In this document: positions 1-21,511 of the stretch, one piece after another
Layout of the letters: every line of letters begins with the position of its first letter
How positions within the stretch are numbered: the first letter of the stretch is position 1
DNA from: Pontibacter oryzae
GTDB lineage: Bacteria > Bacteroidota > Bacteroidia > Cytophagales > Hymenobacteraceae
NCBI RefSeq assembly: GCF_003576375.1
Contig: NZ_QWGE01000006.1
Coordinates: 67,704-91,703, forward strand
Reading direction: 5' to 3'
DNA length: 24,000 nucleotides
Position numbers and translations under genes: made by a program
Notes under the pieces: generated by a model
Told to the model about the DNA's origin: nothing
Seen by the model: the letters and a program-made list of their open reading frames with translations, nothing else
Databases searched by the model: none

Positions 1-19
1 AACCCTCTAACTCAAACCG

Positions 20-2098
20 TTGTTCTCATTCCGCCTCATAACTACTGCCTCTCCTTGGCTTATACTTGCCTGCCTAGCAGCTGGCGCGCTATACGCCTGG
101 TTATTGTACAGTAAGAAAACTCCCTGGCCCAAAGCCCTGAACTATGGACTGGCGGGCTTGCGCTTTATGGTGGTAAGTATACTTTGCTTTTTGCTGATGG
201 GGCCATTGGTGCGCTATGTCGCCAATACCACGGTGCCGCCTACCATTGTTTTTGCGCTGGATAACTCACAATCCGTTAAGCTGTTCTCCGACTCCACTGC
301 CTTGCAGGCTACGCAACAGGAACTGCAACTGGTGCGCGATCAACTTGAGGCCCAGGGCTACCAAACAGCGGTGCAAACCCTTGGCGGTAACCAAACGGAA
401 AGTATAAATACAATAACCTATACCTCTGAAACATCTAACCTGAGCCAGTTGCTGGAGCAGGTGCAGAATGGCTATTCGGATCAAAACCTGGCTGGCGTAG
501 TGCTGCTCTCGGATGGCATTGTTAACCAGGGCCTCTCCCCTACTTACAGCAATTTTGGCTTTACAATTTACCCCGTGGCCGTTGGCGATACCGTTCCGAA
601 GAAAGATATAATGATTGCCTCGCTGCGCTACAACAAGGTAAACTACAGCGGCAACCGCTTCCCGATGGAAGTGGAGGTGCAGCATGAGGGCTTTGGGGGG
701 AGAACCGTGAATGTCATACTTCAGGAAAACGGCAAAACCCTTGCCAGCAAACGCGTCCTGCTGAAAGAGGGCCAACCGGTGCAGCAGGTTCCGTTTCAGG
801 TGCTGGCAAGCGGCTTGGGCAAACGGCATTATGTGGTGCGCATAGAGCCCCTGCAAGGCGAGTTTACCACGCTCAACAATACCAAGCATGCCTACATCGA
901 TGTGGTGAAGGGCAAGATAAAAGTACTGCTTGCCGCCGCGGCTCCGCACCCCGACATCAAAGCCATCCGCACGGCCATAGAATCTAACGAGAACTACGAA
1001 ACCGCACTTTTTATACCGGGCGTGAACGAATTTCAGGTACAGGATTACGATGTGGCTGTGCTGCACCAGTTGCCAGGGCGCATGGCCGGCGCAGAGTCCG
1101 CCCTAAATCTAGTGCGCCAGAAAAACCTGCCCGCCCTTTACATACTTGGGCCGCAAAGCGACTTAGCAAACTTTAACCGCCTAAACATTGGCCTGAACGT
1201 CATTAGCAGCGGACAAACCGACGAGGTATCGGCGGTGCCTAACTCCAACTTTAGCAATTTCCATTTACCGGAACAAGCAGCGGAGCGCATGCAAGAGTAC
1301 CCGCCGGCCCGCGTGCCGTTCGGGGAGATCAGGTTGGCTGCCAACACCGAAACCATACTTTACCAGCAGGTTGGCCGCGTGCGCACCACCAAGCCTTTAC
1401 TAACCCTACAAACCTCCGGCGACAAGCGCAACGCCGTACTGCTTGCCTCCGGCACCTGGCAGTGGCGCCTGCACGAAGCTGCCAACCACGAGCAGCCGCA
1501 GGTATACAACCAGCTCATCACCAACCTGGTGCAGCTACTGAGTGCGCCGCGCAACAAAAAGCGCCTCAACGTGTACCCTAGCCAGACAGAATACACCACT
1601 TCAGACGAGATACGCTTTAACGCGGAAGCCTACAACGAAGCCCTGGAGCCCATCTATGGCCAGAACATTACGTTAACCATCACCGACGAAGACGAGCAGC
1701 CCAGAAACTTTACCTTTGCCAACGGCGAGAACCAGACTGGCGTGAACATAGGCACGCTGCCCGGCGGCCGCTACACTTACACGGCTACTGCCACCATTAC
1801 CGGCAAACAGCAAAAAGACCAGGGCGAGTTTGTGGTGGAAGAGCTGCAACTGGAGGCCCTGAACGCCGTGGCCGACCATAACCTGCTTTTCCAGTTGGCA
1901 AACAACTCAGGCGCCAGTTTATACTTCCCGGGTGAGATGCGGCAGTTAGAGCAGGACATCTTGCAGGCTGACCACAAAAGCATCATCTACAGTCAGGAAG
2001 AACAGAACGAGGTCATTGACCTGAAATGGCTGTTTTTCCTATTGCTTGGCCTGATAAGCATCGAGTGGTTTGTGCGGAAGTATAACGGCAGTTATTAG
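20..2098 (+). CDS. Large membrane protein with an N-terminal double-transmembrane (BatA-like) region, a vWA/aerotolerance-like body and a C-terminal TM anchor
   Basis: 692-aa uninterrupted ORF. Two hydrophobic helices lie near the N-terminus (PWLILACLAAGALYAWLL, FMVVSILCFLLMGPL), followed by IVFALDNSQS (vWA-like strand). The C-terminal helix is WLFFLLLGLISIEWF. Only a TTG start is available, because an in-frame TAA sits at 8-10. The function call is family-level only. Confidence 0.6.
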   Translation: MFSFRLITTASPWLILACLAAGALYAWLLYSKKTPWPKALNYGLAGLRFMVVSILCFLLMGPLVRYVANTTVPPTIVFALDNSQSVKLFSDSTALQATQQELQLVRDQLEAQGYQTAVQTLGGNQTESINTITYTSETSNLSQLLEQVQNGYSDQNLAGVVLLSDGIVNQGLSPTYSNFGFTIYPVAVGDTVPKKDIMIASLRYNKVNYSGNRFPMEVEVQHEGFGGRTVNVILQENGKTLASKRVLLKEGQPVQQVPFQVLASGLGKRHYVVRIEPLQGEFTTLNNTKHAYIDVVKGKIKVLLAAAAPHPDIKAIRTAIESNENYETALFIPGVNEFQVQDYDVAVLHQLPGRMAGAESALNLVRQKNLPALYILGPQSDLANFNRLNIGLNVISSGQTDEVSAVPNSNFSNFHLPEQAAERMQEYPPARVPFGEIRLAANTETILYQQVGRVRTTKPLLTLQTSGDKRNAVLLASGTWQWRLHEAANHEQPQVYNQLITNLVQLLSAPRNKKRLNVYPSQTEYTTSDEIRFNAEAYNEALEPIYGQNITLTITDEDEQPRNFTFANGENQTGVNIGTLPGGRYTYTATATITGKQQKDQGEFVVEELQLEALNAVADHNLLFQLANNSGASLYFPGEMRQLEQDILQADHKSIIYSQEEQNEVIDLKWLFFLLLGLISIEWFVRKYNGSY

Positions 2099-2109
2099 GC
2101 CATGGGCGC

Positions 2110-2147
2110 GGCAAAGTATAAGATCATGCGCAGCGCCATACTTTGCC
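2110..2147. terminator. Hairpin just downstream of the 20-2098 CDS, built from an inverted pair of the AAGTAT motif
   Basis: GGCAAAGTAT (2110-2119) is perfectly complementary to ATACTTTGCC (2138-2147), with an 18-nt loop. There is no T-run, so terminator function is only suggested by its position 12 nt after the stop. Confidence 0.35.
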
Positions 2148-2403
2148 GGCCTGTAGTATAATTACGCACCGCTAATGCCCGAAGCGCAGGAAAGTATCCG
2201 TACCTTTGGCATTTAGAATGCTGGCTTTATTTAGTGTTAAGCTTTTTTTGCGGAGTGATGTTTCTCAACATAAATAAGTATTAACTCGCATATTTTAAGG
2301 TGATGCCGTAGCAGCTAAAGTATAAAGCTGACTTATTACCTATCAGAAACCGTAAACCAAAGCCCAGCAAGTATAATTCATCATCCCTTTTACCATCCAG
2401 ACA

Positions 2404-3078
2404 TTGAAATACATCATCATCAATAAACCGTTTGAAGTACTTACCCAGTTTACCGACGAGGCTGGCCGCGCCACGCTGAAAGACTATGTGCCTGTACCGG
2501 ACATTTACCCGGTTGGCCGCCTCGACTACGACAGCGAAGGCCTGGTGCTGCTAACCGATGACAAGCAGCTACAGCACCGCCTCTCCGATCCGAAGTTTAA
2601 AATAGAGAAAACGTATTTGGTACAGGTTGATGATGTTCCATCAGATGAGGCTTTGACACGTTTGCGCCTGGGCGTACAGGTGAAAGGCACTAAAACGGCT
2701 CCGGCTAAGGTAAAACTATTGGAGCAGGCGCCGCAAATATGGGAACGCTCCAAGCCAATCCGTTTCCGGAAAGAAATACCGACATCCTGGATGGAGATAA
2801 AAATATCGCAGGGCATGAACCGCCAGGTACGCCGCATGACGGCCGCCGTGGGGTACCCTACGCTTCGCCTCATCAGGCCAAGCATAGGCCCAATAAACTT
2901 AGGCGAGCTGCAACCCGGAGAGTACCGTGAACTAAGCACAGAAGAAGTGCAGGAATTAAAATCCTTAATCAGTAAAGCTCCTAAAACGAGCAGCGCTACC
3001 AGAAACAGCGGGTTTAAAGGCGCAAGCACAAACAAAAGAAGCGGCGGCAAAGGCGGTTTCCGGAAGCAGATAAACTAG
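2404..3078 (+). CDS. rluE: 23S rRNA pseudouridine synthase, RsuA/RluE family
   Basis: Collinear with E. coli RluE in my recollection: NKPFEVLTQFTDEAGRATLKDY, catalytic GRLDYDSEGLVLLT, and IPTSWMEIKISQGMNRQVRRMTAAVGYPTLRLIR. It uses a TTG start and has a basic Lys/Gly-rich C-terminal tail. Confidence 0.8.
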   Translation: MKYIIINKPFEVLTQFTDEAGRATLKDYVPVPDIYPVGRLDYDSEGLVLLTDDKQLQHRLSDPKFKIEKTYLVQVDDVPSDEALTRLRLGVQVKGTKTAPAKVKLLEQAPQIWERSKPIRFRKEIPTSWMEIKISQGMNRQVRRMTAAVGYPTLRLIRPSIGPINLGELQPGEYRELSTEEVQELKSLISKAPKTSSATRNSGFKGASTNKRSGGKGGFRKQIN

Positions 3079-3084
3079 CCTGAT

Positions 3085-3627
3085 CTATGAGTTACCGGTA
3101 AGTCCTTTTAAAAGCTCCAAACCTTCGTCCCAGCGGCCATAGCCTGATGTGGCGTTTATGTGCCCAGCCATCCCGATGTTCACATAGCGGCTCCCCCAGG
3201 CCTCGGCCAACTGTTGCGCGCGCTTCGCGGATAGGTAAGGGTCGTTCATGCTGCTAACCACAACACTCCGGAAAGGCAGCGGCTCCATCGGAATCGGGGC
3301 AAAGCCCTGCACGGCATCCGTCAGGGATGGGTATTCGGTATCGGCGGGGGCAACCAGCAGGGCACCCTTCAGGCGGAGCTTAAACTTTTGCGCCCAAAAC
3401 ACAACCGCCATGCAGCCCAAGCTGTGCGCCACTAGCACCACCTGCTCTAACTGATGCTTCCGGATAGTTTTATCCAAGTTCTCCACCCAGTCTTCTAAAG
3501 CCGGGGCCTCCCAGTTCTTTTGCTGCACGCGCTCAAAAGTAGCAAACTGTTTTTGCCATAGCGTTTGCCAATGCTGCTCGCCCGAATCGCCGAGGCCAGG
3601 TACAAGTATAACTGTGCTACGTTGCAT
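3085..3627 (-). CDS. Alpha/beta serine hydrolase, YdeN/RBBP9-like
   Basis: 180 aa. It has an N-terminal ILVPGLGDS motif, the nucleophile elbow LVAHSLGC, and a C-terminal GHIN histidine. Size and motif order match the small YdeN-type esterases. Confidence 0.7.
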   Translation of the reverse strand: MQRSTVILVPGLGDSGEQHWQTLWQKQFATFERVQQKNWEAPALEDWVENLDKTIRKHQLEQVVLVAHSLGCMAVVFWAQKFKLRLKGALLVAPADTEYPSLTDAVQGFAPIPMEPLPFRSVVVSSMNDPYLSAKRAQQLAEAWGSRYVNIGMAGHINATSGYGRWDEGLELLKGLTGNS

Positions 3628-3731
3628 AAGTATGGTTTATGGTTTATAGGCGACATTCTTTTACGTGGAACTCGTGCGGAGCACTAAAAGCACGGGCAAG
3701 TTTAACAACTCTTAAAGTATAAATCTCAGCC

Positions 3732-4325
3732 TTAAAAGTTAATACCTGCAGCTACTGAAAACGCCCGGCCCTTCCCTTCGGACCTGCCATCGTTCAGCAG
3801 CGAGGTGATGTAATGATGATAAAGCAGGTCAAGGTGCAGCACCCATACTTCGAAAGCAAGGCCACCGTTTAGCGCAAACTGCGAATTATGGATGTCCTTC
3901 CGTTCAATGTCGATGTTATTGTCTGCCACCGAGAGTGCAAACGAATAAGACGGCCCCGCCATAAACCGAACCCGCGAGATAATCGGGCCATCGTAGCCGG
4001 TTTGGTAGCCCAGGTATACAGGCACGCGCAGGTAACGCACCAGCAAGGCGTCGCGCTCGTTGGGTGTGGTTTGGTTCCTGGTGATCAGGTGGGTTTTATG
4101 GTTCACAAAGTTAAGCTCGGGCTGCACAAAAAAGGTTTCCCCAATTCGCCCGTACACGCTGTATTCCGAGCTAAGGCCGGTGTCGTCGTCCATGACCAGG
4201 TCATCGCTGCTAAGTTGGTAGAAATTGATGCCTACTTTGGCTCCAATCCTCAGATGGGGTTCATCCTGCCCAAAAACAGGGACTGCAAAGGCTAGCAGGA
4301 AACAGGCAAGTATAAGGTGCTTCAT
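3732..4325 (-). CDS. Outer-membrane beta-barrel (porin-family/PorT-like) protein
   Basis: Signal peptide MKHLILACFLLAFAVPVFGQ, alternating amphipathic beta-strand pattern, and a terminal aromatic residue (AAGINF). Confidence 0.7.
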   Translation of the reverse strand: MKHLILACFLLAFAVPVFGQDEPHLRIGAKVGINFYQLSSDDLVMDDDTGLSSEYSVYGRIGETFFVQPELNFVNHKTHLITRNQTTPNERDALLVRYLRVPVYLGYQTGYDGPIISRVRFMAGPSYSFALSVADNNIDIERKDIHNSQFALNGGLAFEVWVLHLDLLYHHYITSLLNDGRSEGKGRAFSVAAGINF

Positions 4326-5045: not shown

Positions 5046-5115
5046 GGTATATTTTGCAACGCTTATGCTACTTAATCAGTACTTTTATCTTATTATTTAA
5101 AACGACACTGAAACT

Positions 5116-5742
5116 ATGAGTAACGCAGCCTTCATTCAGATTCACCCCGAGACCCCGCAGGAGCGAAAAATACGGGAGGTGGCAGACATTCTGCGCAATG
5201 GCGGAGTGATTATTTATCCTACAGACACTATCTATGGGCTCGGCTGCGACATTCATAATGCCCGCGCCATTGAGCGTGTGTGCCAGATAAAAGGTGTGAA
5301 GCCAGAAAAAGTAAACTTGTCCTTTATCTGCTCTGACCTGACGCACATCTCTGACTATGCCAAGATAGACACGCCCACGTATAAAGTGATGAAAAAGGCG
5401 CTTCCGGGGCCGTTTACGTTTATTTTGGATGCCACCAGCAATGTCCCCAAGTATGCCAGCGCCAAGAAAAAGACGGTTGGTATACGAGTGCCCGATAATA
5501 AGATTGCGCTGGAACTGGTGAAAGAGCTTGGCAACCCCATCCTATCCACCTCTATCCGTGACGAAGATGAGGTGATAGAATATAGCACCGACCCTGAGTT
5601 GATCTACGAAAAGTATAGAAATCTTGTAGATGCCGTGATAGACGGAGGCTACGGCAATAATATCGCCTCCACGGTAGTAGACGCCTCCAACAACTTCGAA
5701 GTCCTCCGCGAAGGCGCCGGAGACATTGAGGAGTTTTTGTAG
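5116..5742 (+). CDS. tsaC: L-threonylcarbamoyladenylate synthase (YrdC/TsaC type, no Sua5 C-domain)
   Basis: 208 aa with IYPTDTIYGLGCD, KKKTVGIRVPD and GNPILSTSIRDEDE, the hallmarks of the YrdC domain. Confidence 0.85.
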   Translation: MSNAAFIQIHPETPQERKIREVADILRNGGVIIYPTDTIYGLGCDIHNARAIERVCQIKGVKPEKVNLSFICSDLTHISDYAKIDTPTYKVMKKALPGPFTFILDATSNVPKYASAKKKTVGIRVPDNKIALELVKELGNPILSTSIRDEDEVIEYSTDPELIYEKYRNLVDAVIDGGYGNNIASTVVDASNNFEVLREGAGDIEEFL

Positions 5743-5908
5743 TTAGAAAGTTGGGAAGTTAGAAGGTTAGAAAGTTTGGGAGGTAGAGAGTTTTGATTGT
5801 AGCTTGAGCTTATTTTCATTTATACTTCACAAGTATACCCAGCCCTTCTGAATCCCTGAGTACGTCACCTCTCCCTTTCTAACTTTCTAACTTCCTAACT
5901 TTCTAACT
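5742..5908. repeat. Composite inverted repeat: two opposed arrays of the 8-mer GTTAGAAA flanking a ~75-bp spacer
   Basis: The left arm (5742-5790) reads GTTAGAAA GTTGGGAA GTTAGAAG GTTAGAAA GTTTGGGAGGTAGAGAG. The right arm (5866-5908), reverse-complemented, reads GTTAGAAA GTTAGGAA GTTAGAAA GTTAGAAA GGGAGAGGTG. The spacer contains TATACTT-CAC-AAGTATA (5821-5837). The arms abut or overlap the stops of both convergent genes. Confidence 0.8.
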
Positions 5909-6803
5909 CCGCGGCCTCCGGCCGCGTATGTTTCCAGCGTTTGTGGGTCCAGAGATAGTCGGCGGGGTGGCGGCGGATGGCAGCTTCCAGCTTTCTGGCA
6001 AAGGTTTCTGTTATTGATGCTTCCGTGCTGGCATCTGGCTTTCCGTTAGAGATAAGTTCGAACGTTAGGGTATAGTGGCCGCGGCTTGTGCGGTGCGTAT
6101 CCAGGAAGAGCACAGGATAGCCAAACTTGTTAGCCAGCTTTTCAGCACCTTCATAAAAAGGCGTATCCTGGTGCAGGAAAGTGGTCCAAAATGTGATTTC
6201 GCTTTTTAAAGGCGTTTGATCCGAGAGCATAGCTACCACGCGCGGCATGTTGCGGTTAGCGGCAAAATCGCGCAGCGTGTCTTTCATCTTGATCAGCTTT
6301 GCCCCCAACTTGCTGCGTGTGCGCAACATAAAGGTTTCAAAGAAAGCGTTGTTCAGGGGTTTGTAAACGCCATAAGCCGGAAAGCCAAACTGTACTGCCC
6401 CCGCAGATAGCACCCATTCCCAGTTAGCGGCATGGGAGCCCATGGTAATTACTGTTTTGCCTTGTTTTACAAAATCGTCAAGCAGATCTTGGTTCGTAAA
6501 CACAATGCGCCGCTCCATCTCCGCAGCATCCATCGACAGCAGCTTAAGCGTTTCCACGATCACATCGGCAAACTGCCTGTAAAAACCCTTGGCGATCTGA
6601 TGTATTTCCTCCAGGCTCTTTTCGGGGAAGGCACGCTGCAGGTTGCTTAGCACAACCTCCTTGCGGTACCCAACCACATAGTATACTACAAAGTATAAAA
6701 AGTCGGCCAGCAGGTAAAGCACAGAGAGCGGCAACAGCGACAAGCCCTTCAGCAGCAGCCAGAGCGGATAATAAAGTGGCGGTATAGATGTCTTTTTATT
6801 CAT
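5895..6803 (-). CDS. Lipid A biosynthesis (Kdo2-lipid IVA) lauroyl/late acyltransferase family protein, LpxL/HtrB-like
   Basis: After an N-terminal TM helix (PLSVLYLLADFLYFVVYYVVGYR) come a HAANWEW-type motif (GSHAANWEW) and the family-typical C-terminus HPADYLWTHKRWKH. The ATG at 6803 (MNKKTSIPP...) is preferred over the ORF-track start at 6887. Confidence 0.8.
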   Translation of the reverse strand: MNKKTSIPPLYYPLWLLLKGLSLLPLSVLYLLADFLYFVVYYVVGYRKEVVLSNLQRAFPEKSLEEIHQIAKGFYRQFADVIVETLKLLSMDAAEMERRIVFTNQDLLDDFVKQGKTVITMGSHAANWEWVLSAGAVQFGFPAYGVYKPLNNAFFETFMLRTRSKLGAKLIKMKDTLRDFAANRNMPRVVAMLSDQTPLKSEITFWTTFLHQDTPFYEGAEKLANKFGYPVLFLDTHRTSRGHYTLTFELISNGKPDASTEASITETFARKLEAAIRRHPADYLWTHKRWKHTRPEAAELES

Positions 6804-6966
6804 AGGCCAAAGCGCGACCACAAAGGTACAACCCTCCTCCGGATTATGAAATTCCAAAACTTCTGCTACTTTAGCGGGTAGCCACAAGATGTGGTTTAGT
6901 TCGCCATATCATCTAACCCGGAACGCCAAACCAGATACTTTTAACTTTAAAAACTTAACTACACCT

Positions 6967-10345: not shown

Positions 10346-10500
10346 GTTGTGGCTGGCTTTTATACTTTCTTAGGCTTTTAGTAAGCAAATGTATCACTTG
10401 TTCACTCAAACAGAAAGCTTGCTATCATGGTAATCCACGACTTGAAGATTCACGGAAGGTTATAGTATCCTTAAGATTTGTATTTTGCCCCAAGTATAAA

Positions 10501-11547
10501 TTACCTATCGTTTCCATTGCCCAGCAGCAGCGACAGCGGGCGCATGCTTAGGTGCTTATCAGCGATTAGTTTAAGTATAGCCAGGAAAGGTATAAAGAGG
10601 ACCATACCGGCGGCTCCCCAAAGTATACCGCCGGCTACTATGGCCAGCAATGTAAAGAGCATGTTCACCTGAAGCCGCGCGCTAACGGCCCACGGAAAAA
10701 TGAGGTTGGCCTCCAGGTATTGCACCGCGCCAAACACCAGCACCACGCCCATCGGGTACCATAGCGAGTCATAGGTTATCCAGGCAACTGCCATCGGGAG
10801 TATAGCTCCAATCGAAATGCCCACATAAGGTATAAACGTAAGTATGGATGCCACCACGCCAAAGAAGAGCGCATGCGGCACCCCGATCATGTATAGCCCC
10901 AAACTGTTTAGAATGCCCACAATAACATATACAATCAGCATCCCTTTGATAAAATTATAATACGTGGTAATAGTTTCGTGGAGGATTTGCCGGATTTTAT
11001 GATGCTCGTTTTGTGGGAATAAAGAATTTAAGGCTCTGGCGAGTTGCTCCCGGTTGTAAAGTATGAGCGCTACGTAAATAGGGATAAGTATAAACAACAC
11101 CACCGATACGGCTGAAGTGTACACCACATCCTGCACCGTGGCAAATGCTGAAGACGCGACATTTCCGGCTATACTTTCTACCCAGGCTACTTGCCGCGCC
11201 GCATCAATGCCGTAGTGCTGTTCAAGGTATGCACTTAGGTTTTGCCAACTCAGAAGCAGTTTTTTTTGAAGTGCAGGCCATTCCTCCCCGAAGCGCAGCA
11301 TCTGTTTGAACAGTATGAACGCAAGTCCGCCAACTAAAACCATAAGCAGCAAAAGGCAAAGCGAGATAGCAAGCCAGCGCGGCCACTTTTTTAGCTCCAG
11401 CCAGCGGCAAATAGGATACAGTACAAAACTTATGAGCAGCGCAAAGCTTAGCGGAATAAAAAGCGAGCGGCCCACATACAACACTATGCCAACAAGCACG
11501 GTGTATTGCAGCCATTTCAGCCAGTTAATTGCTGAGCTATTGTTCAT
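10501..11547 (-). CDS. AI-2E family transporter (PerM/YhhT-like permease)
   Basis: Polytopic membrane protein of about 348 aa with family-typical helices and a C-terminal GLYMIGVPHALFFGVVASILTFIPYVG...GAAGMVLFIPFLAILK region. ATG 11547 (MNNSSAINW...) is preferred over the upstream TTG at 11577. Confidence 0.8.
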   Translation of the reverse strand: MNNSSAINWLKWLQYTVLVGIVLYVGRSLFIPLSFALLISFVLYPICRWLELKKWPRWLAISLCLLLLMVLVGGLAFILFKQMLRFGEEWPALQKKLLLSWQNLSAYLEQHYGIDAARQVAWVESIAGNVASSAFATVQDVVYTSAVSVVLFILIPIYVALILYNREQLARALNSLFPQNEHHKIRQILHETITTYYNFIKGMLIVYVIVGILNSLGLYMIGVPHALFFGVVASILTFIPYVGISIGAILPMAVAWITYDSLWYPMGVVLVFGAVQYLEANLIFPWAVSARLQVNMLFTLLAIVAGGILWGAAGMVLFIPFLAILKLIADKHLSMRPLSLLLGNGNDR

Positions 11548-11640: not shown

Positions 11641-12939
11641 ATGACGTATAAATTCGCCGCCCTTGCCCTGGCCTGTGGCTTCGCCACTACCCTATCCGCT
11701 CAAAATATCAACAGCATTACACAGGAGCAAACTACAAGAATCGTATCTACGCTTAGTTCCGACGACATGCAGGGCCGTGCTTCGTTTACGCCTGGCATAG
11801 ACAAAGCGGCTAAATTTATTCAAAATGAGTTTCAGCGCGTAGGCTTACAGCCCTTGCCAGGCAAAAACAGCCTAATGCAAACTTTTGAAGTATACCGCGT
11901 GGCCCCAGTTGCTTATAAGGCAAAGCTGGATGGCCAGGACGTTGCCCCGGAAAACATCTTCGCTACCACAGAAAAAACAAAAATCAGCTGGAAGCAGAAA
12001 AATAAGAAGGCGTTAGTGCGTATCAGTGAGGCCGATGATTTTAGAGCTGCCCTGCGTAATTTAAAACCTGATGAAGACGCGCTAGTGTTAGTGCACCCCA
12101 AGCACACTGAGATCTTTAAACGCTACCAGCATTATCTAGGCGAAGGAAGCGTAAAGCAAAAGCTGGGAGAAAACACCAGCCGCGTGTTTATACTTACAGA
12201 CCAGCAAACGGAGCCATCCAAGTATAAAATTGAGGTGAAGAATACTATCGAGAAGCTGCCGTTAACCAATGTGGCCGGCATGATTGAGGGCAAGCGCAAA
12301 GATGAGTTTGTGGTGTTTTCGGGCCACTACGACCACATTGGCATTCAGGAAGCCGTAGAAGGCGACAGCATTGCCAACGGCGCCGACGACGATGCAGCGG
12401 GCACCACTGCCATGATGATGCTGGCCGAGTACTACAAAAAGCAGCCACAGCCGGAGCGCACACTTCTTTTTGTGGCCTTTGCCGCAGAAGAGATCGGTGG
12501 TTTTGGATCTAAATACTTCTCGGAGCAGCTGAACCCAGACCAGATCGTGGCTATGTTTAATATTGAGATGGTGGGCAAACCTTCCAAATTCGGCCCAAAT
12601 AGCGCCTACCTCACCGGCTTTGAAAAGTCTGATTTGGGCAAACTGATGCAGAAACGACTAGAAGGCACGGCATACAGCATCCACCCCGACCCATACCCGG
12701 AGCAGAACCTGTTCTACCGCTCCGACAACGCCACATTGGCCCGCCTCGGTGTACCGGCCCATACTATTTCCTCGGTGCAGATCGATCAGGACAAAACGTA
12801 CCACACCGTAAACGACGAACTGGAGCAGCTAAACATGGAGCACCTCACCAACATGATCCGCGCGGTTGCCCTGGCTTCTGAAGGTGTAGTTAACGGCGAG
12901 GATACACCAACGCGAGTGGATAAATCGCAAGTGAGGTAA
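11641..12939 (+). CDS. Secreted M28 family zinc aminopeptidase
   Basis: Signal peptide (ALALACGFATTLSAQ) and M28 metal-ligand blocks: SGHYDHIG, GADDDAAGT, AAEEIGGFGS and a late H (YHTVND). Confidence 0.85.
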   Translation: MTYKFAALALACGFATTLSAQNINSITQEQTTRIVSTLSSDDMQGRASFTPGIDKAAKFIQNEFQRVGLQPLPGKNSLMQTFEVYRVAPVAYKAKLDGQDVAPENIFATTEKTKISWKQKNKKALVRISEADDFRAALRNLKPDEDALVLVHPKHTEIFKRYQHYLGEGSVKQKLGENTSRVFILTDQQTEPSKYKIEVKNTIEKLPLTNVAGMIEGKRKDEFVVFSGHYDHIGIQEAVEGDSIANGADDDAAGTTAMMMLAEYYKKQPQPERTLLFVAFAAEEIGGFGSKYFSEQLNPDQIVAMFNIEMVGKPSKFGPNSAYLTGFEKSDLGKLMQKRLEGTAYSIHPDPYPEQNLFYRSDNATLARLGVPAHTISSVQIDQDKTYHTVNDELEQLNMEHLTNMIRAVALASEGVVNGEDTPTRVDKSQVR

Positions 12940-12991: not shown

Positions 12992-13037
12992 AACTCCTTA
13001 TATACAGTAGTTGTATGGTATAGCAAGTCATTAAAGA

Positions 13038-13418
13038 ATGAAAAAAATTTTACTACTCTTCATATGCTTACATCTATACTTTGTAGCCTCTGCACAAGAT
13101 GGAACTGACAGAACAAAGCTTGGGGTAGAGTATGCTAAGCGGGAATTAGCTGACGCACTAAAAAATAATTCACAGAAGCAGATACTTGTAGAGAAGGTTA
13201 TCAAGGATAAACCGACAGCTATTAGTGTGGCAGAAGAAATGCTGTTCAGTATTTATGGAAAAGAGAACATCGTTAGGCAGCGACCTTACGAAAGCCATTT
13301 GATTGACGGTTACTGGGTGCTTAATGGAACATTGCCGAAAGATTGGGTAGGAGGAACATTTCTTATAATAATTAACTCAACTGACGGCAAAGTAATCAAG
13401 TTGACGCACGGAAAATAA
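13038..13418 (+). CDS. NTF2-fold immunity protein (Imm-NTF2 / YbbC-YhhH-like), with signal peptide
   Basis: The motif series AISVAEEMLFSIYGKENIVRQRPYESHLIDGYWVLNGTLPKDWVGGTFLIIINSTDGKVIKLTHGK matches my recollection of the polymorphic-toxin Imm-NTF2 family. The N-terminal leader is MKKILLLFICLHLYFVASAQ. Confidence 0.7.
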   Translation: MKKILLLFICLHLYFVASAQDGTDRTKLGVEYAKRELADALKNNSQKQILVEKVIKDKPTAISVAEEMLFSIYGKENIVRQRPYESHLIDGYWVLNGTLPKDWVGGTFLIIINSTDGKVIKLTHGK

Positions 13419-13428
13419 GAACAACACC

Positions 13429-13495
13429 ATACAACAAAGTGCAGCACTTAGCCTCGGCTTTGCCTCGCCTATTGGCTGCACAAGTAACGTTGGTG
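13429..13495 (+). repeat. attC-like site 1 (67 bp)
   Basis: ATACAAC-AAA-GTGCAGC-[ACTTAGCCTCGGCTTTGCCTCGCCTATTG]-GCTGCAC-AAGTAAC-GTTGGTG. The inner stem is a perfect 7 bp, with outer AAC...GTT. Confidence 0.7.
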
Positions 13496-13515
13496 GTAAC
13501 TGAAATTATAGAAAA

Positions 13516-13947
13516 ATGTACGCAGACGACTATAAATCATGTGAAGAAACCTTTGTCACTCTACGAATTTTCTATGATGCTCAACCGCCAGACTATGTAT
13601 CTGATTTCTTGAAAATAACCCCTTCAAGGACACAAGTAAAAGGAGAAGAGCTGAGTAATAGAAGTAAGTATACTTCTAACGGTTGGTTTTTAAGTTCAGA
13701 AAGAGCAATAACTTCAAAGGATGCAAGAAGGCATATTGATTATCTTTTAGACCAGATTTTACCACTAAAAGAGAAGATTGACGAACTACAGAAAGGCAGC
13801 GCTCAAATTGACATCACTTGCTATTGGGTATCAAAAACCTGCAATGGCGGACCTACTTTATCGAATCAGCAGTTGAAAAAGTTAGCAGATTTAGGTGTGG
13901 ATTTCTGGTTCGACTTTTATTGCAGCGATGAGTTAGACGAAGTATAG
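13516..13947 (+). CDS. DUF4279 domain protein
   Basis: 143 aa. The pattern F.TLRIF...P..V...L.I.P....KGE......NGW.L.S......D....ID.LL..I.....I..L......IDI.CYW....NGGP.L......L...GV.FWFD.Y fits my recollection of the DUF4279 layout. Confidence 0.55.
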   Translation: MYADDYKSCEETFVTLRIFYDAQPPDYVSDFLKITPSRTQVKGEELSNRSKYTSNGWFLSSERAITSKDARRHIDYLLDQILPLKEKIDELQKGSAQIDITCYWVSKTCNGGPTLSNQQLKKLADLGVDFWFDFYCSDELDEV

Positions 13948-13967
13948 AAAAAGAAGAAAACAGCAGC

Positions 13968-14036
13968 CACCAACAAGGTGCATAATTTAGGCTTCGGCTT
14001 ACGCCTCACCCACATTATAGCACGAGACCGTTAGGT
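13968..14036 (+). repeat. attC-like site 2 (69 bp)
   Basis: CACCAAC-AAG-GTGCATAAT-[TTAGGCTTCGGCTTACGCCTCACCCAC]-ATTAT(A)GCAC-GAGACC-GTTAGGT. The inner stem is 9 bp with one bulged A, and the core fits GTTRRRY. Confidence 0.7.
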
Positions 14037-14055
14037 GCAACCGTAAGAAAGAAAA

Positions 14056-14511
14056 ATGACCTTTGATAAAATTTTTTCTGATTCATTTGACACGTTTAAA
14101 GTATTTGACAACATGGATGTGGCAAAAGCCAGTCATCAAGCTGGTAATACTCCAAAAAGCCTTTGGCAAATCTTAAATCATATAACAGTCTGGCAAGAAT
14201 TCCAATTGAACAAATTAAAAGGGTTAGACTCTACGGACATTGAAGAATTGGATACTTGGGAAAATGACCCTGTTGTTCGTGACCAAAGATTATTACAGCA
14301 AACTATCAATACTTTCAATAATCAGATTGAACAGATAAAAAATGAAATCCAAACATTATCTACTGAAAGTAACGATATAGAGAAGAAGTTAAAGATAGTA
14401 CAAGACCTATCAGTCCATCTATCATTTCACCTAGGAGAGATGGTTTTGCAAATGCGGCAAAACGGACATTATCCGATGCCGAGTGAAATGAAGGAATATT
14501 TAGCCAGCTAA
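14056..14511 (+). CDS. Small cytoplasmic protein, possibly DinB-superfamily four-helix bundle
   Basis: 151 aa. SLWQILNHITVWQEF and the C-terminal LSVHLSFHLGEMVLQMRQNG resemble the DinB His-containing helices (H...H.GQ-like). Similarity was judged by eye only. Confidence 0.4.
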   Translation: MTFDKIFSDSFDTFKVFDNMDVAKASHQAGNTPKSLWQILNHITVWQEFQLNKLKGLDSTDIEELDTWENDPVVRDQRLLQQTINTFNNQIEQIKNEIQTLSTESNDIEKKLKIVQDLSVHLSFHLGEMVLQMRQNGHYPMPSEMKEYLAS

Positions 14512-14521
14512 AAACGGCTGT

Positions 14522-14590
14522 ACCTAACCACGCATATACTCCACGCTTCGGCCGACGGCCTCGCGCACCGCCTATACTAGTCCGTTGAGC
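14522..14590 (+). repeat. attC-like site 3 (69 bp)
   Basis: ACCTAAC (fits RYYYAAC) ...CGCTTCGGCCGACGGCCTCGCGC... GTTGAGC (fits GTTRRRY). The inner pairing is weaker than in the other sites (TATA/TATA plus flanking pairs), but it shares the GCTTCGGC...GCCTCGC core with sites 1-2. Confidence 0.6.
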
Positions 14591-14646
14591 TTAATAAGAA
14601 TTTATAGACCTTCGTTGCCTGAAGGCAGAGGTGAACCATAGCACTA

Positions 14647-15048
14647 ATGCAAAAGCTTAGCAAAAAATCAAGGACTCTAATTGTAGCTGGTGCAGTTATA
14701 TTATTGCTGTTACTATACTTTCGAAGTATAAAATTAGAAAAGGGAAATAAAAAAGAACAAGCACAAGCAGTAGCAACAATAGCAGAATTGAAGGCAGGTT
14801 ATCGAGGTGGCATAACCATGACTTATAGATTCTTCTACAAAAACAAGAGGTACTCAGGAACAAGAAAAGTATTTATCAGCAGTTCATATATTAAAAGGTT
14901 CAAGGACAAACACTTTACAGTCGTCTTTAATAAACTTGAGCCAAGTAAAAACCGGCTGTTACTATTGGCTAAAGATTTCGAAGAGTTTGACGTGGCCTAT
15001 CCAGATAGTTTGGAATGGATAGAAGTTTTGAAAAGAAAGTCTCTATGA
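14647..15048 (+). CDS. Small N-terminally membrane-anchored hypothetical protein
   Basis: 133 aa. A single TM helix (TLIVAGAVILLLLLYF) is followed by a Lys/Tyr/Phe-rich beta-type domain. No family was recognised. Confidence 0.5.
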   Translation: MQKLSKKSRTLIVAGAVILLLLLYFRSIKLEKGNKKEQAQAVATIAELKAGYRGGITMTYRFFYKNKRYSGTRKVFISSSYIKRFKDKHFTVVFNKLEPSKNRLLLLAKDFEEFDVAYPDSLEWIEVLKRKSL

Positions 15049-15075
15049 CACCTATAAAACCTGAAGAATTACTGA

Positions 15076-15129
15076 GCTCAACAAAAACTATAGGTTAGCG
15101 TTGCCACCCTATAGCCCAGACCGTTAAAT
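15076..15129 (+). repeat. attC-like site 4 (54 bp)
   Basis: GCTCAAC-AAAAA-CTATAGG-[TTAGCGTTGCCAC]-CCTATAG-CCCAGACC-GTTAAAT. The inner stem is a perfect 7 bp, and both outer 7-mers fit RYYYAAC/GTTRRRY. Confidence 0.7.
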
Positions 15130-15158
15130 TATGCACGAGATGTTAAGCACAAAGTAAC
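15128..15158 (+). repeat. Partial attC 3'-half fragments at the array end
   Basis: ATTATGCACGAGATGTTAAGC (15128-15148) parallels the 3' half of site 2, ATTATAGCACGAGACCGTTAGGT. The following GCACAAAGTAAC (15147-15158) parallels the 3' half of site 1, GCACAAGTAAC. Confidence 0.55.
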
Positions 15159-15160
15159 TG

Positions 15161-15192
15161 AAAAGCGGCTCCCACTCAGGAGCCGCTTTTTT
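15161..15192. terminator. Bidirectional rho-independent terminator
   Basis: AAAA-GCGGCTCC-CACTCA-GGAGCCGC-TTTTTT. The stem is a perfect 8 bp. It lies 3 nt from the stop of the minus-strand EEP gene and closes the plus-strand cassette array. Confidence 0.85.
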
Positions 15193-15194
15193 AT

Positions 15195-16058
15195 TTACTT
15201 CTTCTTCACCTCATACATTACCTCGGCCATCACCGGGAAATGATCCGAAGGGAAAAGGCCATTGGCGTAGGTGTCCGTCAGGATGCCATACTTGCTGACG
15301 CTAAAATCCGGGCTGAGCCAGATGTGGTCGATGCGTTCGTCGGTTTGGCGGGTGGCCTCAAAGGCATTGAAAGTGCCGCGCGGTGCATAGCGGAATTTAG
15401 CCAGTTGGTAAGCTGCCTTCAGGTTGCTACCGTCGCTCATGGCTTTATACTTTTCGTCGTGCTGGCTAAAATTAAAGTCGCCGGTAAGTATAACAGGCGC
15501 TTTTCCGGCAATCTCTTTTATCTTTCGCTGCACCAGCTTTACGCTTTCCTTGCGGGCCTGCTCGCCACGGTGATCGAAATGCACATTGAACAGGTAAAAA
15601 GTATAACCCGTGCCAAGTTCCCGAAACTGCCCCCACGAACACACGCGCGGGTAATCAGCATCCCAACCCTTGCCTGGCTTATCAGGCGTTTCTGAGAGCC
15701 AAAAGTTGCCTTGCTTCAGCAGTTTATACTTATCCTTTTTATAAAATACGGCCGCATACTCGCCTTTTTCCTTGCCATCGTCGCGGCCCACGCCAATATA
15801 ATTGTACCCCGTAAGTTCTTTAGCCATGCCTTGCAGCTGGTGGTGCATTACCTCCTGCGTCCCAAACATATCAAAATCATTAAACTGCACCAGCCCGGAT
15901 ATAATAGGCAAACGATTGTTCCAGGCATTCACGGTATCGTTTACATTATCGTAGCGGATGTTGTAGGTGGCCACGCGCATGGTTTGAGCCTGTGTAAGTA
16001 CAGAGGCACTGCAGAACAGCAACACCAGGCTGGCAAAGTATAAGGCTTTACTTATCAT
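15195..16058 (-). CDS. Secreted endonuclease/exonuclease/phosphatase (EEP) family protein
   Basis: Signal peptide (ASLVLLFCSASVLTQAQ). EEP blocks: RVATYNIRYDN, FGTQEV, NVHFDHRG, TGDFN, IDHIW and SDHFPV. Confidence 0.85.
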   Translation of the reverse strand: MISKALYFASLVLLFCSASVLTQAQTMRVATYNIRYDNVNDTVNAWNNRLPIISGLVQFNDFDMFGTQEVMHHQLQGMAKELTGYNYIGVGRDDGKEKGEYAAVFYKKDKYKLLKQGNFWLSETPDKPGKGWDADYPRVCSWGQFRELGTGYTFYLFNVHFDHRGEQARKESVKLVQRKIKEIAGKAPVILTGDFNFSQHDEKYKAMSDGSNLKAAYQLAKFRYAPRGTFNAFEATRQTDERIDHIWLSPDFSVSKYGILTDTYANGLFPSDHFPVMAEVMYEVKKK

Positions 16059-16117
16059 GGGTATTGGTTTAAGTATAATTTGAGCCTACAAAAAGGCATT
16101 CTAAGGCTTAAGGTAGC

Positions 16118-16357
16118 ACTTTTGCCTCACCTGCCAAAGTATAACTGCTCTCGCTGGTGCGAGCTTGCAGCTCGTACCTTAAAACGCAATGCATTATGCT
16201 GCTTTTCATCTGACTTAAGAAGAGTACGAGCTATAAGCTCGCACCAGCCTACAAATTTTACAGATTTGTCTACTTACTTAATCAAGGGCATGGCAATCAT
16301 TTCCGAAAGTCTCTCATAGCTTTAAGCCAACTTTTCCCCGTACCTGCCAAAGTATAA
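16118..16357. repeat. Direct repeat pair ACTTTT-N6/7-CCTGCCAAAGTATAA in the EEP/priA intergenic region
   Basis: The exact 16-mer ACCTGCCAAAGTATAA occurs at 16129-16144 and 16342-16357. Each copy is preceded by ACTTTT 6-7 nt upstream, and the copies are about 213 bp apart. Confidence 0.8.
16154..16247. repeat. Pair of REP-like palindromic elements in inverted orientation
   Basis: CTGGTGCGAGCTTGCAGCTCGTAC (16154-16177) matches the reverse complement of GTACGAGCTATAAGCTCGCACCAG (16224-16247) at 22/24. Each arm is itself a hairpin (CGAGCT-NNN-AGCTCG). Confidence 0.75.
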
Positions 16358-16444
16358 ATCAGCACTGCGCACTTCGGGGGCTGCCCGCTAAGAACAATCA
16401 TCATTTTTTACGACCTTTGCAAAGAGCTAAAAGTATAATCACCC

Positions 16445-18976
16445 TTGTCTGAGTTACTGAACTTTAATTACCCGCCAGAGCCAAGCACAGATCGCGTTAC
16501 GCTGTTTGCCGACGTGATACTTCCGCTGCCTTTGCCCAAGCTTTACACCTACCGCATCCCTTACGAGATGAACGACGAGGTGCTGGTGGGCGTGCGGGTA
16601 ATTGTACAGTTCGGGGCCAAAAAGGTACTAAGCTGCATCGTAGCCGACATCCACGAAAATGCCCCCGCCGATTACCAAGCCAAGTATATCCTGGATGTGC
16701 TGGATGATAAACCTATCATCACGAAACCGCAGCTGCGCCTTTTTAAATGGATCGCCGATTACTACATGTGCACGCTTGGCGAGGTGATCAATGCCGCACT
16801 GCCATCTGCACTTAAACTCAGCAGTGAGTCTCGGATACAGCTGCACCCGCATTACAACCCCGAGGAAGACGAGCTTATACTTGCCCCGCAGGAGGAAAAA
16901 ATCATTTTTGCGCTGAACAACAACCAAGCGCTAACGTTTACAGAGGTAGGCAACTTGCTGCAGCTCAAGAGCTACCATAAGTTTATCAAGTCGCTGATCC
17001 AGAAGGAGGCGATCATTATTTATGAGCAGGTAAGCGATAAGTTCTCGCCTAAAGTGGTAAAGAAAATTCGCCTTACAGAGCATTTTGTGCAGGAAGAAGG
17101 CTTACTGGAAGAGCTCTTTAACCAGCTCACGCCGCAGCCCAAGCAACTAGACGTGCTCCTGAATTACCTGCAACTCGTGCCTGTGCACCAGGACATTAAC
17201 CTGAACTACCGCGGCACCGAGAAAAGCGCCCTGACCAATAACCCGCACCTCTCCGCCTCCTCCATCAACACGCTCATTAAAAAAGGCGTGCTGGAGCAGT
17301 TCGACCAGATCGTGTCGCGGTTTCCGATGGAGCATGGCAACCAGCAGCTCCCTATGGCGCTGTCGGAGCACCAGTTGCAAGCCAAGGATGAGATCCTGGG
17401 CTTGTTTAAGGAGAAAGATACGGTGCTGCTGCATGGCGTAACCGGCAGTGGCAAAACCGAAGTATACATCGACCTGATAAAGCACGCCCTTGACAGCGGC
17501 GGCCAGGTGTTATACTTGCTGCCCGAGATTGCCCTCACAGCCCAAATCGTAACGCGCCTGATGAAGGTCTTCGGCGACAAACTGGGCATATACCACTCCA
17601 AGTTCTCCGACAACGAGCGCGCCGAAGTATGGCAAGGTATACTTTCGGGCCGTTTTCAGGTGATTGTCGGGGTGCGCTCGTCCATCTTTCTGCCTTTTCA
17701 TGATTTATCGTTGGTGATAATTGATGAGGAGCACGAGCCAAGCTACAAACAATACGACCCGGCGCCGCGCTACAATGCCCGCGAAACCGGTCTGATGATG
17801 GCGCACCTGCAAGGCGCTAAAACGCTGCTGGGCTCGGCCACGCCATCCATAGAAAGCTATTACAACTGCAAAACCGGCCGCTGGGGTTTGGTAAGTATGA
17901 CCAAGCGTTTCGGGGAGGCCAAACTGCCGGAAATTGAACTGGTGGATACGCGCCGCGAGCAGCAGCGCAAGAATATGCACAGTCACTTTTCGGCCAAACT
18001 ACTCACCGAGATCGAGGAGCGCCTCAAGCGCCAGGAGCAGGTAATCCTGTTCCAGAACCGCCGTGGCTACGCCCCGTTCATCAGCTGCGACGAGTGCTCA
18101 TGGATTCCGAAGTGTAAATTCTGTGCCGTAAGCCTGTCGTACCACAAGTATAACAATGAGCTGCGCTGCCACTATTGTGGCTACCACGAGCGCATGCCCC
18201 ACGACTGCCCCGCCTGCGGTGCCACCACGCTTAAAAGTATGGGTTTCGGTACGGAGAAGGTAGAAGACGAGCTGAAACTGATGCTGCCCAGCGCCGAGGT
18301 GCAGCGCATGGACCTGGACACGACCAAGAAGAAAAACAGTTACCAGCAGATCATTTCTGATTTTGAGAGCGGCCGCACCAACGTGCTGGTGGGTACCCAA
18401 ATGGTTACCAAAGGCCTCGATTTTGAGAATGTAAGTTTGGTGGGCATACTTAATGCCGATACCATCATCAACTTCCCGGATTTCCGGGCGCATGAGCGGG
18501 CGTACCAACTGTTTGTGCAGGTTAGCGGGCGTGCAGGCCGAAAGGGCAAGCCGGGTTCGGTTATCATCCAAACCCGCGACCCGCTGCAGCCAATTTTCAA
18601 TAAAGTACGCAGCAACGATTATTCTACTCTTTACGAGCATGAGATTGAGGAGCGCATGCGTTTCGGCTACCCGCCCTTTACCCGCATGATCCGGATTACG
18701 GTAAAGCATGCCGATGATAAAGCAGCCGAGAACGCCGCTATTGTGCTCACCAAAGACCTCTCTGATCGCTTAGGCAAGCAGCAGGTACTGGGGCCGGAGG
18801 TGCCCTATATCTTCAAGATCCGTAATCTGTTTCTGCAGGAAATCCATATAAAACTGCCCCGCGATTCCACAAACCTAAAAGCAGCCAAAAGCCAAATCGC
18901 GCAGGCCATCTTCAACCTGAAGCTGCTCGCTGATTTTAAGGGTATTCGGGTTGTGGCGGATGTGGACCCGGTGTAG
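16445..18976 (+). CDS. priA: Primosomal protein N' (replication restart helicase PriA)
   Basis: 843 aa. It has an N-terminal 3'-DNA-binding region (FADVILPLPLPKLYTYRIP), Walker A LHGVTGSGKTEVY, DEEH (IIDEEHEPSYKQ) and the Cys-rich zinc region (CDECSWIPKCKFC...CHYCG...CPACG). It uses a TTG start at 16445. Confidence 0.92.
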   Translation: MSELLNFNYPPEPSTDRVTLFADVILPLPLPKLYTYRIPYEMNDEVLVGVRVIVQFGAKKVLSCIVADIHENAPADYQAKYILDVLDDKPIITKPQLRLFKWIADYYMCTLGEVINAALPSALKLSSESRIQLHPHYNPEEDELILAPQEEKIIFALNNNQALTFTEVGNLLQLKSYHKFIKSLIQKEAIIIYEQVSDKFSPKVVKKIRLTEHFVQEEGLLEELFNQLTPQPKQLDVLLNYLQLVPVHQDINLNYRGTEKSALTNNPHLSASSINTLIKKGVLEQFDQIVSRFPMEHGNQQLPMALSEHQLQAKDEILGLFKEKDTVLLHGVTGSGKTEVYIDLIKHALDSGGQVLYLLPEIALTAQIVTRLMKVFGDKLGIYHSKFSDNERAEVWQGILSGRFQVIVGVRSSIFLPFHDLSLVIIDEEHEPSYKQYDPAPRYNARETGLMMAHLQGAKTLLGSATPSIESYYNCKTGRWGLVSMTKRFGEAKLPEIELVDTRREQQRKNMHSHFSAKLLTEIEERLKRQEQVILFQNRRGYAPFISCDECSWIPKCKFCAVSLSYHKYNNELRCHYCGYHERMPHDCPACGATTLKSMGFGTEKVEDELKLMLPSAEVQRMDLDTTKKKNSYQQIISDFESGRTNVLVGTQMVTKGLDFENVSLVGILNADTIINFPDFRAHERAYQLFVQVSGRAGRKGKPGSVIIQTRDPLQPIFNKVRSNDYSTLYEHEIEERMRFGYPPFTRMIRITVKHADDKAAENAAIVLTKDLSDRLGKQQVLGPEVPYIFKIRNLFLQEIHIKLPRDSTNLKAAKSQIAQAIFNLKLLADFKGIRVVADVDPV

Positions 18977-21508: not shown

Positions 21509-21511
21509 AGC

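Follow-up and report, generated by a model that had tools for sequence, protein, structure and literature searches.

A hyper-abundant octamer in the core genome of Pontibacter oryzae and its clade-specific counterparts in other Hymenobacteraceae

Why should the same eight letters recur, on both strands and in genes of ordinary function, thirty times within 24 kilobases of a bacterial genome? This question is raised by a stretch of 24,000 nucleotides of Pontibacter oryzae (contig NZ_QWGE01000006.1, positions 67,704 to 91,703; hereafter the window), for which an original prediction, made from the letters alone, had reported a striking excess of the octamer AAGTATAA. We found that the hyper-abundance of AAGTATAA is real. 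The word stands about 25-fold above chance within the conserved part of the Pontibacter genome, is missing from recently acquired islands, and is replaced by other words, or by none, in related species.

Excess, placement and anatomy of the octamer

An exact search found 30 copies of AAGTATAA in the window, 21 on the plus and 9 on the minus strand. The 29 positions given in the original prediction were all correct, but its total was one too low, a minus-strand copy at 5820-5827 having been overlooked. In 100 dinucleotide-preserving shuffles of the window, 1.26 copies were expected and at most 4 were found, while Markov models predicted 3.7 (order-3) or 8.8 copies (order-4). Shorter parts of the word were also in excess: the 7-mer AAGTATA occurred 51 times (3.9 expected), AAGTAT was both the most enriched and the most frequent hexamer of the window (n=89), and TATACT/AGTATA, put at about 58 copies by the earlier estimate, was indeed over-represented, but with a true count of 63 (11-16 expected). 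We also shuffled synonymous codons within each gene, leaving the proteins and the codon usage of each gene unchanged. Coding DNA contained 19 copies, compared with 2.28 +/- 1.40 (maximum 7) in 1000 such shuffles, and intergenic DNA contained 11 copies in 2,327 bp, compared with 0.21 expected. The excess thus exceeds what oligonucleotide and codon bias explain. Its density was 1.25 per kb in the window, 1.7 per kb in the window core and 1.33 per kb across 384 kb of relatives. A density of about 1.3 per kb falls in the range of the DNA uptake sequences (DUS), the uptake signal sequences (USS) and the highly iterated palindrome HIP1.

The copies are listed here with their strand and location; genes were called by a simple longest-ORF rule (ORF, open reading frame), and L001 is an uncultured Pontibacter.

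60-67, minus: within ORF 20-2098 (plus), antisense
400-407, plus: within ORF 20-2098, sense
1919-1926, minus: within ORF 20-2098, antisense
2078-2085, plus: 3' end of ORF 20-2098, sense
2114-2121, plus: intergenic region 2099-2403
2318-2325, plus: intergenic region 2099-2403
2369-2376, plus: intergenic region 2099-2403; retained in P. actiniarum
3604-3611, plus: 5' end of serine hydrolase gene (3085-3627, minus), antisense; retained in P. actiniarum
3715-3722, plus: intergenic
4308-4315, plus: 5' end of outer-membrane beta-barrel gene (3732-4325, minus), antisense
5820-5827, minus: spacer of convergent genes; the overlooked copy
6691-6698, plus: lipid A acyltransferase gene (5895-6887, minus), antisense
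10360-10367, minus: spacer of convergent clpC and AI-2E transporter gene
10492-10499, plus: same spacer
11086-11093, plus: AI-2E transporter gene (minus), antisense
12188-12195, minus: M28 peptidase gene (plus), antisense; retained in L001
12220-12227, plus: M28 peptidase gene, sense; retained in L001 and P. actiniarum
14724-14731, plus: ORF 14647-15048; sole 8-mer in a variable island
15445-15452, minus: Exo_endo_phos nuclease-family gene (15195-16058, minus), sense
15486-15493, plus: same gene, antisense
15599-15606, plus: same gene, antisense
15724-15731, minus: same gene, sense
16036-16043, plus: 5' end of same gene, antisense
16071-16078, plus: divergent spacer upstream of priA
16137-16144, plus: terminates 25-nt direct repeat 16120-16144
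16350-16357, plus: terminates 25-nt direct repeat 16333-16357
16431-16438, plus: close upstream of priA; retained in L001 and P. actiniarum
16875-16882, minus: priA, alignment site 430
17510-17517, minus: priA, alignment site 1077, peptide VLYLLP
18146-18153, plus: priA, alignment site 1713, K-Y-K, sense

Copies were three to seven times denser in non-coding (3.4-7 per kb) than in coding DNA (0.8-1.2 per kb). Most of them are intragenic nonetheless, on either strand, and every stop-free frame on both strands is used. Since both strands, all stop-free frames and intergenic DNA carry the word, the force behind it acts on DNA and not on protein, as had been proposed; the spelling of compatible peptides, described below, agrees with this. 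Intergenic copies favoured neither an orientation nor a distance with respect to the starts or ends of genes, and they were equally dense whether the spacer was tandem, convergent or divergent. We detected no regularity of spacing, the gaps being near random (coefficient of variation 1.1-1.5); distances that recurred in the clade of P. oryzae did so because orthologous pairs were counted in several species. The strand bias noted originally was present in the window (21:9) but marginal (p = 0.04), and it was not general: over 20 loci of relatives the strands were balanced (258:321), most loci of about 22 kb being near 50:50. It had also been remarked that clpC contains no 8-mer, which is true but not noteworthy, because only one peptide site in clpC could encode the word.

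When single positions were varied, positions 1-7 proved sharp (39-fold enrichment of the perfect word and 1- to 8-fold of the variants), while position 8 was looser (39-fold for A, 13-fold for C and G, 6-fold for T). To judge from these counts, this profile suggests a protein-binding site. Alignment of 20 nt on each side of the copies disclosed no conservation beyond the word, so that the copies are not parts of a longer repeat, and the word had no match in Rfam. Some copies read TATAAT. AAGTATAA contains a single G:C pair and, like its counterparts AACTATAG and AGGTATAG in other clades, is not a palindrome, though the palindromic 10-mers AAGTATACTT and AACTATAGTT also occur. The word is a free-standing unit of 7-8 bp, insensitive to orientation and position.

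Two stretches of the window are nearly devoid of it:

13013-15154: variable island 1, GC 0.38, with Imm-NTF2-2, DUF4279 and DinB genes; one 8-mer, six 7-mers
18976-24000: variable island 2, GC 0.37, with glycosyltransferase genes; no 8-mer, two 7-mers

GC content outside both islands is 0.49-0.51. Neither island aligned to any relative, although the loci of the relatives span these positions. Together the islands contain a single copy in 7.2 kb, whereas the 16.8 kb of core contain 29 (Poisson P = 6e-5), and the claim that the word is lacking from the glycosyltransferase island was borne out. In all clades, unusually low-GC 1-kb windows held fewer copies, despite the word being AT-rich. The word is missing from recently acquired islands.

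Clade-specific words and the fate of single sites

For comparison, we counted octamers in about 22 kb around priA from 80 species of Hymenobacteraceae. Three main clades each had a dominant word. AAGTATAA was the top octamer in clade A, with 20-42 copies per locus, AGGTATAG reached 16-41 copies per locus in clade B, and AACTATAG 30-46 in clade C. Pooled counts were 510 (14 expected in 384 kb), 285 (4.5 expected in 225 kb) and 192 (5 expected in 118 kb), respectively, and are not fully independent, the loci being partly orthologous. The clade C word was extended to AACTATAG[CT]T and often formed the palindrome AACTATAGTT (27 sites). Close pairs of copies were more often direct than inverted in clades A and B, whereas close inverted pairs predominated in clade C because of these palindromic sites.

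Other Pontibacter species had variants of the word. Two loci (L034 and L036) carried the mixed word AA[GC]TATA[AG], intermediate between dialects, P. akesuensis had AAGTATA[AG], and P. saemangeumensis and P. russatus had 14-15 dispersed copies of ATATATAA. Remnants were seen in L017 and L019 (7 copies each), L012 (5 copies) and P. actiniarum (10 copies). Several other Pontibacter had no such word in their priA locus, and it was also absent from close relatives of similar base composition. By their letters, the Pontibacter words form one family of dialects with the general form A-N-N-T-A-T-A-R, in which the TATA core is invariant. The dialects agree with a tree of PriA, which is an unweighted pair group method with arithmetic mean (UPGMA) distance tree from one protein. 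The word thus changes from clade to clade along the phylogeny, and in some lineages it is reduced to remnants or lacking altogether.

Outside this family, Pontibacter sp. E15-1 (L008) had CCATACCC and Adhaeribacter rhizoryzae (L047) had AAAATATT, while the priA neighbourhoods of Hymenobacter had the words CCCTACCC(C), ACCTAGGG/CCCTAGGG, GGGGCCCC and GGCTAGCC, all unrelated to the Pontibacter word (loci L050, L051, L074, L076; L058, L060, L068, L079; L064, L065; L071-L073). These words of Hymenobacter, L008 and L047 were counted 12-32 times each (0.5-6 expected), those of Hymenobacter and Adhaeribacter at a density below that of the main Pontibacter words. Several of them are palindromic, with a central TA or CTAG, and the inner hexamers of CCCTAGGG, GGCTAGCC and GGGGCCCC are classical type II sites.

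The enrichment is not limited to the neighbourhood of priA. In their flanks, several loci have only priA in common with the window, yet show a similar density of the word, and the clpC neighbourhood of P. cellulosilyticus, on the same contig but outside its priA locus, contained 29 copies in 22.6 kb. Together with the random flanks, this enrichment at non-syntenic neighbourhoods answers the objection that local repeats might account for the excess.

Individual sites were then compared with their counterparts. Peptides compatible with the motif were spelled with AAGTATAA or its complement in 29-93% of cases in clade A, compared with 0-22% in word-less Pontibacter, and the mirror result was obtained for AGGTATAG in the compatible peptides of clade B. 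In the Exo_endo_phos nuclease-family gene of the window, the word was used at 5/5 such sites. Compatible peptides were themselves somewhat commoner in the word-bearing clade. A codon alignment of priA illustrated the switch of dialect: the invariant peptide VLYLLP contains TTA TAC TTG in clade A, CTA TAC CTG in clade B and CTG TAC CTG in word-less species. At site 430, every clade A sequence of the alignment had AAGTATAA, with a change from ...ATT CCG CTG... (DIPL) to ...CTT ATA CTT... (ELIL), and in clade B priA the creation of the word turned DYQSL into DYTSL. Site creation included simultaneous transversions at four positions (cagcggaa to AAGTATAA). The sites were written by point substitution in both coding and non-coding DNA, sometimes at the cost of amino-acid changes.

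Once made, sites are retained far better than control octamers. The window sites were exactly retained in 58-79% of comparisons within the same dialect, where DNA identity is about 81%, and all other octamers in 24-26%; conservation of motif positions in relatives had been put forward as a check, and it was found in those that share the dialect. In L006, L008, L013 and L042, 0/44 aligned window sites were retained (controls, 12-16%). P. actiniarum had kept 6/14 sites, the lost ones having mostly undergone A/T to G/C substitutions. Its locus L322 is 80% identical to the window in syntenic DNA, with a GC content of 0.55 (0.46-0.49 in the window) and a third of the motif density. Because its ClpC is 99% identical to that of the window as a protein, the 80% DNA identity and the GC gap point to strong synonymous divergence with a GC shift. 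Read as substitution histories, these comparisons display creation, maintenance, switching and decay of sites.

Two further groups of words were encountered in the comparison. At an orthologous intergenic site of the AGGTATAG clade, self-overlapping copies of the word formed a (CTATAC)n hexamer microsatellite, which varied from 2 to 14 units among species and contributed 45/285 of the pooled AGGTATAG counts:

L023, 6617-6684: (CTATAC)n
L029, 6604-6689: (CTATAC)n
L032, 6613-6680: (CTATAC)n
L040, 6534-6553: (CTATAC)n
L045, 6042-6055: (CTATAC)n
L022, 6755-6768: (CTATAC)n
L026, 6683-6696: (CTATAC)n

Words containing ACCTGAA (ACCTGAAA, TAACCTGA, TACCTGAA, AACCTGAA) recurred among the top octamers of L010, L012, L014, L017 and L044, with 8-9 counts (1-2 expected), in Pontibacter without the A-N-N-TATA-R word.

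What the word may be

By its sequence signature, the word reflects a lineage-specific directional force on DNA, and the profile of its specificity is that of an interaction between protein and DNA. We tentatively favour, at somewhat less than even confidence, a self-tag like the uptake sequences or HIP1, whose spread would be due to a bias in DNA exchange and whose reader would be a DNA-binding protein that evolves fast. The reader would be a part of a DNA-exchange pathway, most probably natural transformation, that binds DNA in a sequence-specific way. Fragments bearing the tag would be preferentially taken up and recombined, near-matches would be converted, and perfect sites would be maintained across the exchanged core genome. 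Such molecular drive is the proposed origin of USS and DUS. New islands would begin without the tag, a change in the specificity of the reader would produce a new dialect, and if the reader or competence were lost, the tag would decay.

The known uptake sequences, the closest functional analogues, offer both likenesses and differences. USS, of the Hin and Apl types, are hyper-abundant, accrue by point substitution in permissive codons and spacers, have enriched one-off variants and switch subtype between clades, for which molecular drive from uptake bias and recombination has been proposed. They have a 9-nt, GC-containing core (AAGTGCGGT) and AT-rich flanking segments, whereas the Pontibacter word has no flank signal. 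DUS have a length of 10-12 nt, compared with 8 nt for AAGTATAA, and a density of about 1 copy per kb. We found no sequence match and no extended consensus when AAGTATAA was compared with the cores of DUS (GCCGTCTGAA-type) and USS (AAGTGCGGT/ACAAGCGGT-type). The Pontibacter word differs further from DUS in its phylum (Bacteroidota) and in its faster turnover, with at least six dialects, and losses, in one genus; DUS are characterised by a receptor of the type of the minor pilin ComP, while the Pontibacter word is known from sequence alone. Features of the uptake class that it does display are hyper-abundance of about 1 per kb, scarcity in recently acquired DNA and dialects that follow the phylogeny. 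Like DUS, it is short and non-palindromic and occurs on both strands, in coding and non-coding DNA; its dialects vary in a few letters about a core that stays constant (CTG in DUS, TATA here), are conserved within a lineage and are distributed by phylogeny (PMC3630211). DUS reach thousands of copies per genome, and their dialects act as barriers to interspecies transformation (PMC3630211). Within Bacteroidota, Riemerella columbina prefers its own DNA in transformation (PMC7965970). These parallels with the dialects of DUS are among the reasons why we favour a self-tag of the uptake type.

Several observations weigh against it. A literature search for 'Pontibacter' together with 'DNA uptake' found nothing, and the hits listed by other literature searches included no work on uptake, competence or receptors in Pontibacter or Hymenobacter. 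DUS and USS often form inverted pairs that act as terminators; this is not a feature of the Pontibacter word, inverted pairs not being favoured in clades A and B and convergent spacers not being richer in copies. Furthermore, the evidence, consisting of sequence, fits equally well any directional force at the DNA level, including one linked to repair or methylation, and the palindromes of the Hymenobacter words suggest a closer kinship with HIP1 than with DUS or USS.

This last point leads to the main rival explanation, which we consider unlikely, though well worth attention. Here the word would contain or overlap the site recognised by a DNA methyltransferase that is peculiar to the lineage and probably an orphan, as might be the case for HIP1. 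It would be made and kept up by methylation-linked, sequence-directed mismatch correction in the cell (the Elhai 2015 model) or by selection for a methylation-dependent function, and the dialect would change when the methyltransferase changes its specificity. The length of 8 nt is that of HIP1 (GCGATCGC), whose published range of enrichment (15-300x) includes that of the Pontibacter word, and like HIP1 the latter is better conserved than control octamers, both inside and outside coding DNA and independently of codon usage (PMC5861425). One-off variants fall mostly at the outer positions, as is reported for HIP1 (PMC4390886). The occurrence of alternate words, or of none, in some lineages recalls the alternate HIPs, and palindromic relatives exist in clade C (AACTATAGTT), as AAGTATACTT, and in Hymenobacter (CCCTAGGG, GGCTAGCC, GGGGCCCC). 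However, HIP1 is palindromic and GC-rich and has methyltransferase sites embedded in it, while AAGTATAA is AT-rich, with just one G:C pair, and none of the main words described here is a palindrome. Sites also arose by several types of substitution, among them the four-position transversions, so that deamination-type T:G repair alone would be insufficient. The Pontibacter word, unlike HIP1, showed no regularity of spacing at the scale of loci of about 22 kb. The function of HIP1 is still debated, and recent proposals link it to transformation, which it is now thought likely to enhance (bioRxiv 10.1101/2024.09.10.611283; 10.64898/2026.06.24.733823). A methyltransferase target and a self-tag for exchange may therefore converge and need not exclude one another.

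We think it improbable that a chromosomal protein binds the densely spaced copies of the word and thereby marks self DNA or organises the nucleoid. In such a role, which would be selected within the cell, the word would be an analogue of Chi without polarity, holding a nuclease or defence system in check on self DNA. Chi and the FtsK-orienting polar sequences (KOPS) are likewise non-palindromic octamers of lineage-specific sequence, richer in core than in foreign DNA, and the specificity of Chi varies by lineage; the sharp specificity of the short Pontibacter word, its rich core and poor foreign islands and its variation between lineages would suit such a role. But both Chi and KOPS run strongly in the direction of replication and are much sparser than the Pontibacter word, whose density and fold-enrichment far surpass those of Escherichia coli Chi. 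The strand balance within 22-kb loci disfavours a polarity of the Chi or KOPS type, which we rejected on this ground, and full loss in several congeners speaks against an essential chromosomal role.

A shade less credible still is a functionless by-product of a lineage-specific, context-dependent bias of mutation or repair, for which the word would be an absorbing state. Sites do arise by substitution and one-off variants are moderately enriched; an absorbing state would also yield apparent conservation, and the islands would merely not yet be ameliorated. The discrimination of 7-8 contiguous positions at 39-63x is much sharper than would be expected of any such bias known to us, though, and multi-step conversions that change amino acids have been fixed, with a clean switch of word between sister clades.

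Two last explanations carry very little weight. A signal for gene expression (promoter, terminator or RNA motif) or a mobile repeat, such as a repetitive extragenic palindromic (REP) sequence or a miniature inverted-repeat transposable element (MITE), is most improbable: intergenic enrichment and the copies reading TATAAT might have pointed to it, but we rejected regulatory elements, given that there is no fixed orientation or distance to genes, convergent and divergent spacers are equally dense and most copies are intragenic, as well as dispersed repeats, given the random flanks and the lack of an Rfam family. An artefact of chance or composition (codon usage, oligonucleotide bias, local duplication) can practically be discounted. 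An order-5 Markov model does take up most of the excess (510 observed, 341 expected), but only because its 6-mer counts already contain the word; synonymous shuffling and the compatible-peptide test exclude codon bias, and close relatives of similar composition lack the word.

Among the hits listed by full-text literature searches there was no earlier description of these words. A hyper-abundant, lineage-specific genomic word is a known phenomenon; what is new is the phylum, the unrelated AT-rich sequence, the non-palindromic form and the unusually fast turnover in one genus. To our knowledge, hyper-abundant self-words have been described from a few lineages only (Neisseriaceae, Pasteurellaceae and cyanobacteria), and we know of no uptake sequence in Bacteroidota. 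We lean, without yet holding it probable, towards the wider view that Hymenobacteraceae carry unrecognised, rapidly evolving octamer self-tags, which would have been written into the core genome by a sequence-specific machinery of DNA exchange or maintenance, with at least six switches of specificity in Pontibacter and loss in several congeners. If true, this would be a third or fourth independent case of the DUS/USS/HIP1 phenomenon and would imply that natural transformation in Bacteroidota, or some process equivalent to it, is specific for self DNA. Whether such words originate by selection for sex or repair or by molecular drive is a matter of argument, and a receptor for USS was predicted only recently. 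Dialects, intermediates, decaying remnants and tag-free species are found here within one culturable genus; with tag-bearing, tag-switched and tag-free sister species at hand, the reader should be findable by phylogenetic profiling and the question of origin directly testable. The word also serves as a sensitive marker for DNA newly acquired by these genomes, and might be useful to improve the genetic transformation of Hymenobacteraceae.

Genes and other repeats of the window

Outside the islands, the genes of the window are ordinary housekeeping genes. Their products include a pseudouridine synthase, a serine hydrolase, a GNAT acetyltransferase, Sua5/YciO, a lipid A acyltransferase, WbqC, ClpC, an AI-2E transporter, an M28 peptidase, an Exo_endo_phos nuclease-family protein and PriA, followed by the glycosyltransferases. 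PriA of the window is 99% identical to that of L001. Exact look-ups of two window proteins gave no record. ORF 20-2098 (692 residues) had no match in Pfam or NCBIfam; it is conserved in many Pontibacter at 72-80% nucleotide identity and corresponds to a 692-residue gene call in P. actiniarum.

Gene content varies in the interval from the M28 peptidase gene to priA. In the window this interval contains the Imm-NTF2-2, DUF4279 and DinB-like genes and the nuclease-family gene, and in P. actiniarum (L322, 15213-18818) a gene with an Mrr_cat domain, two genes without family and a luciferase-like gene. We take Imm-NTF2-2 and DUF4279 to be immunity-type proteins. With tblastn, the DinB-like protein matched only Hymenobacter, Persicobacter and Bacillus plasmids. 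No hyper-abundant word was present in a 50-kb stretch of a Hymenobacter volaticus plasmid, which was compared without its chromosome. Scans of viral and metagenome sequences for three closely spaced copies returned mainly AT-rich tandem repeats among the matches listed, of which only L246 and L300 looked Pontibacter-like.

Upstream of priA, segment 16120-16357 contains the two 25-nt direct repeats, 84% identical and each ending with AAGTATAA, and between them an inverted repeat with 25-nt arms (16153-16177 and 16224-16248, 92% complementary). Most of this segment did not align to L002, L003 and L005, so that it may be a small insertion or duplication. Short arrays of the octamers AGTTAGAA (5741-5787, 4.5 copies) and CTTTCTAA (5875-5908, 4.2 copies) flank the spacer of two convergent genes. 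CTTTCTAA may be near to the reverse complement of AGTTAGAA, in which case the arrays would form a long, imperfect inverted repeat enclosing two AAGTATA copies.

Finally, the glycosyltransferase gene 21512-22846 contains a 42-bp tandem repeat (22400-22689; about 6 copies, 76% matches), with the palindrome GAGATATCTC in each unit. As the 42-bp units lie inside the gene, they amount to a 14-residue repeat in the protein.

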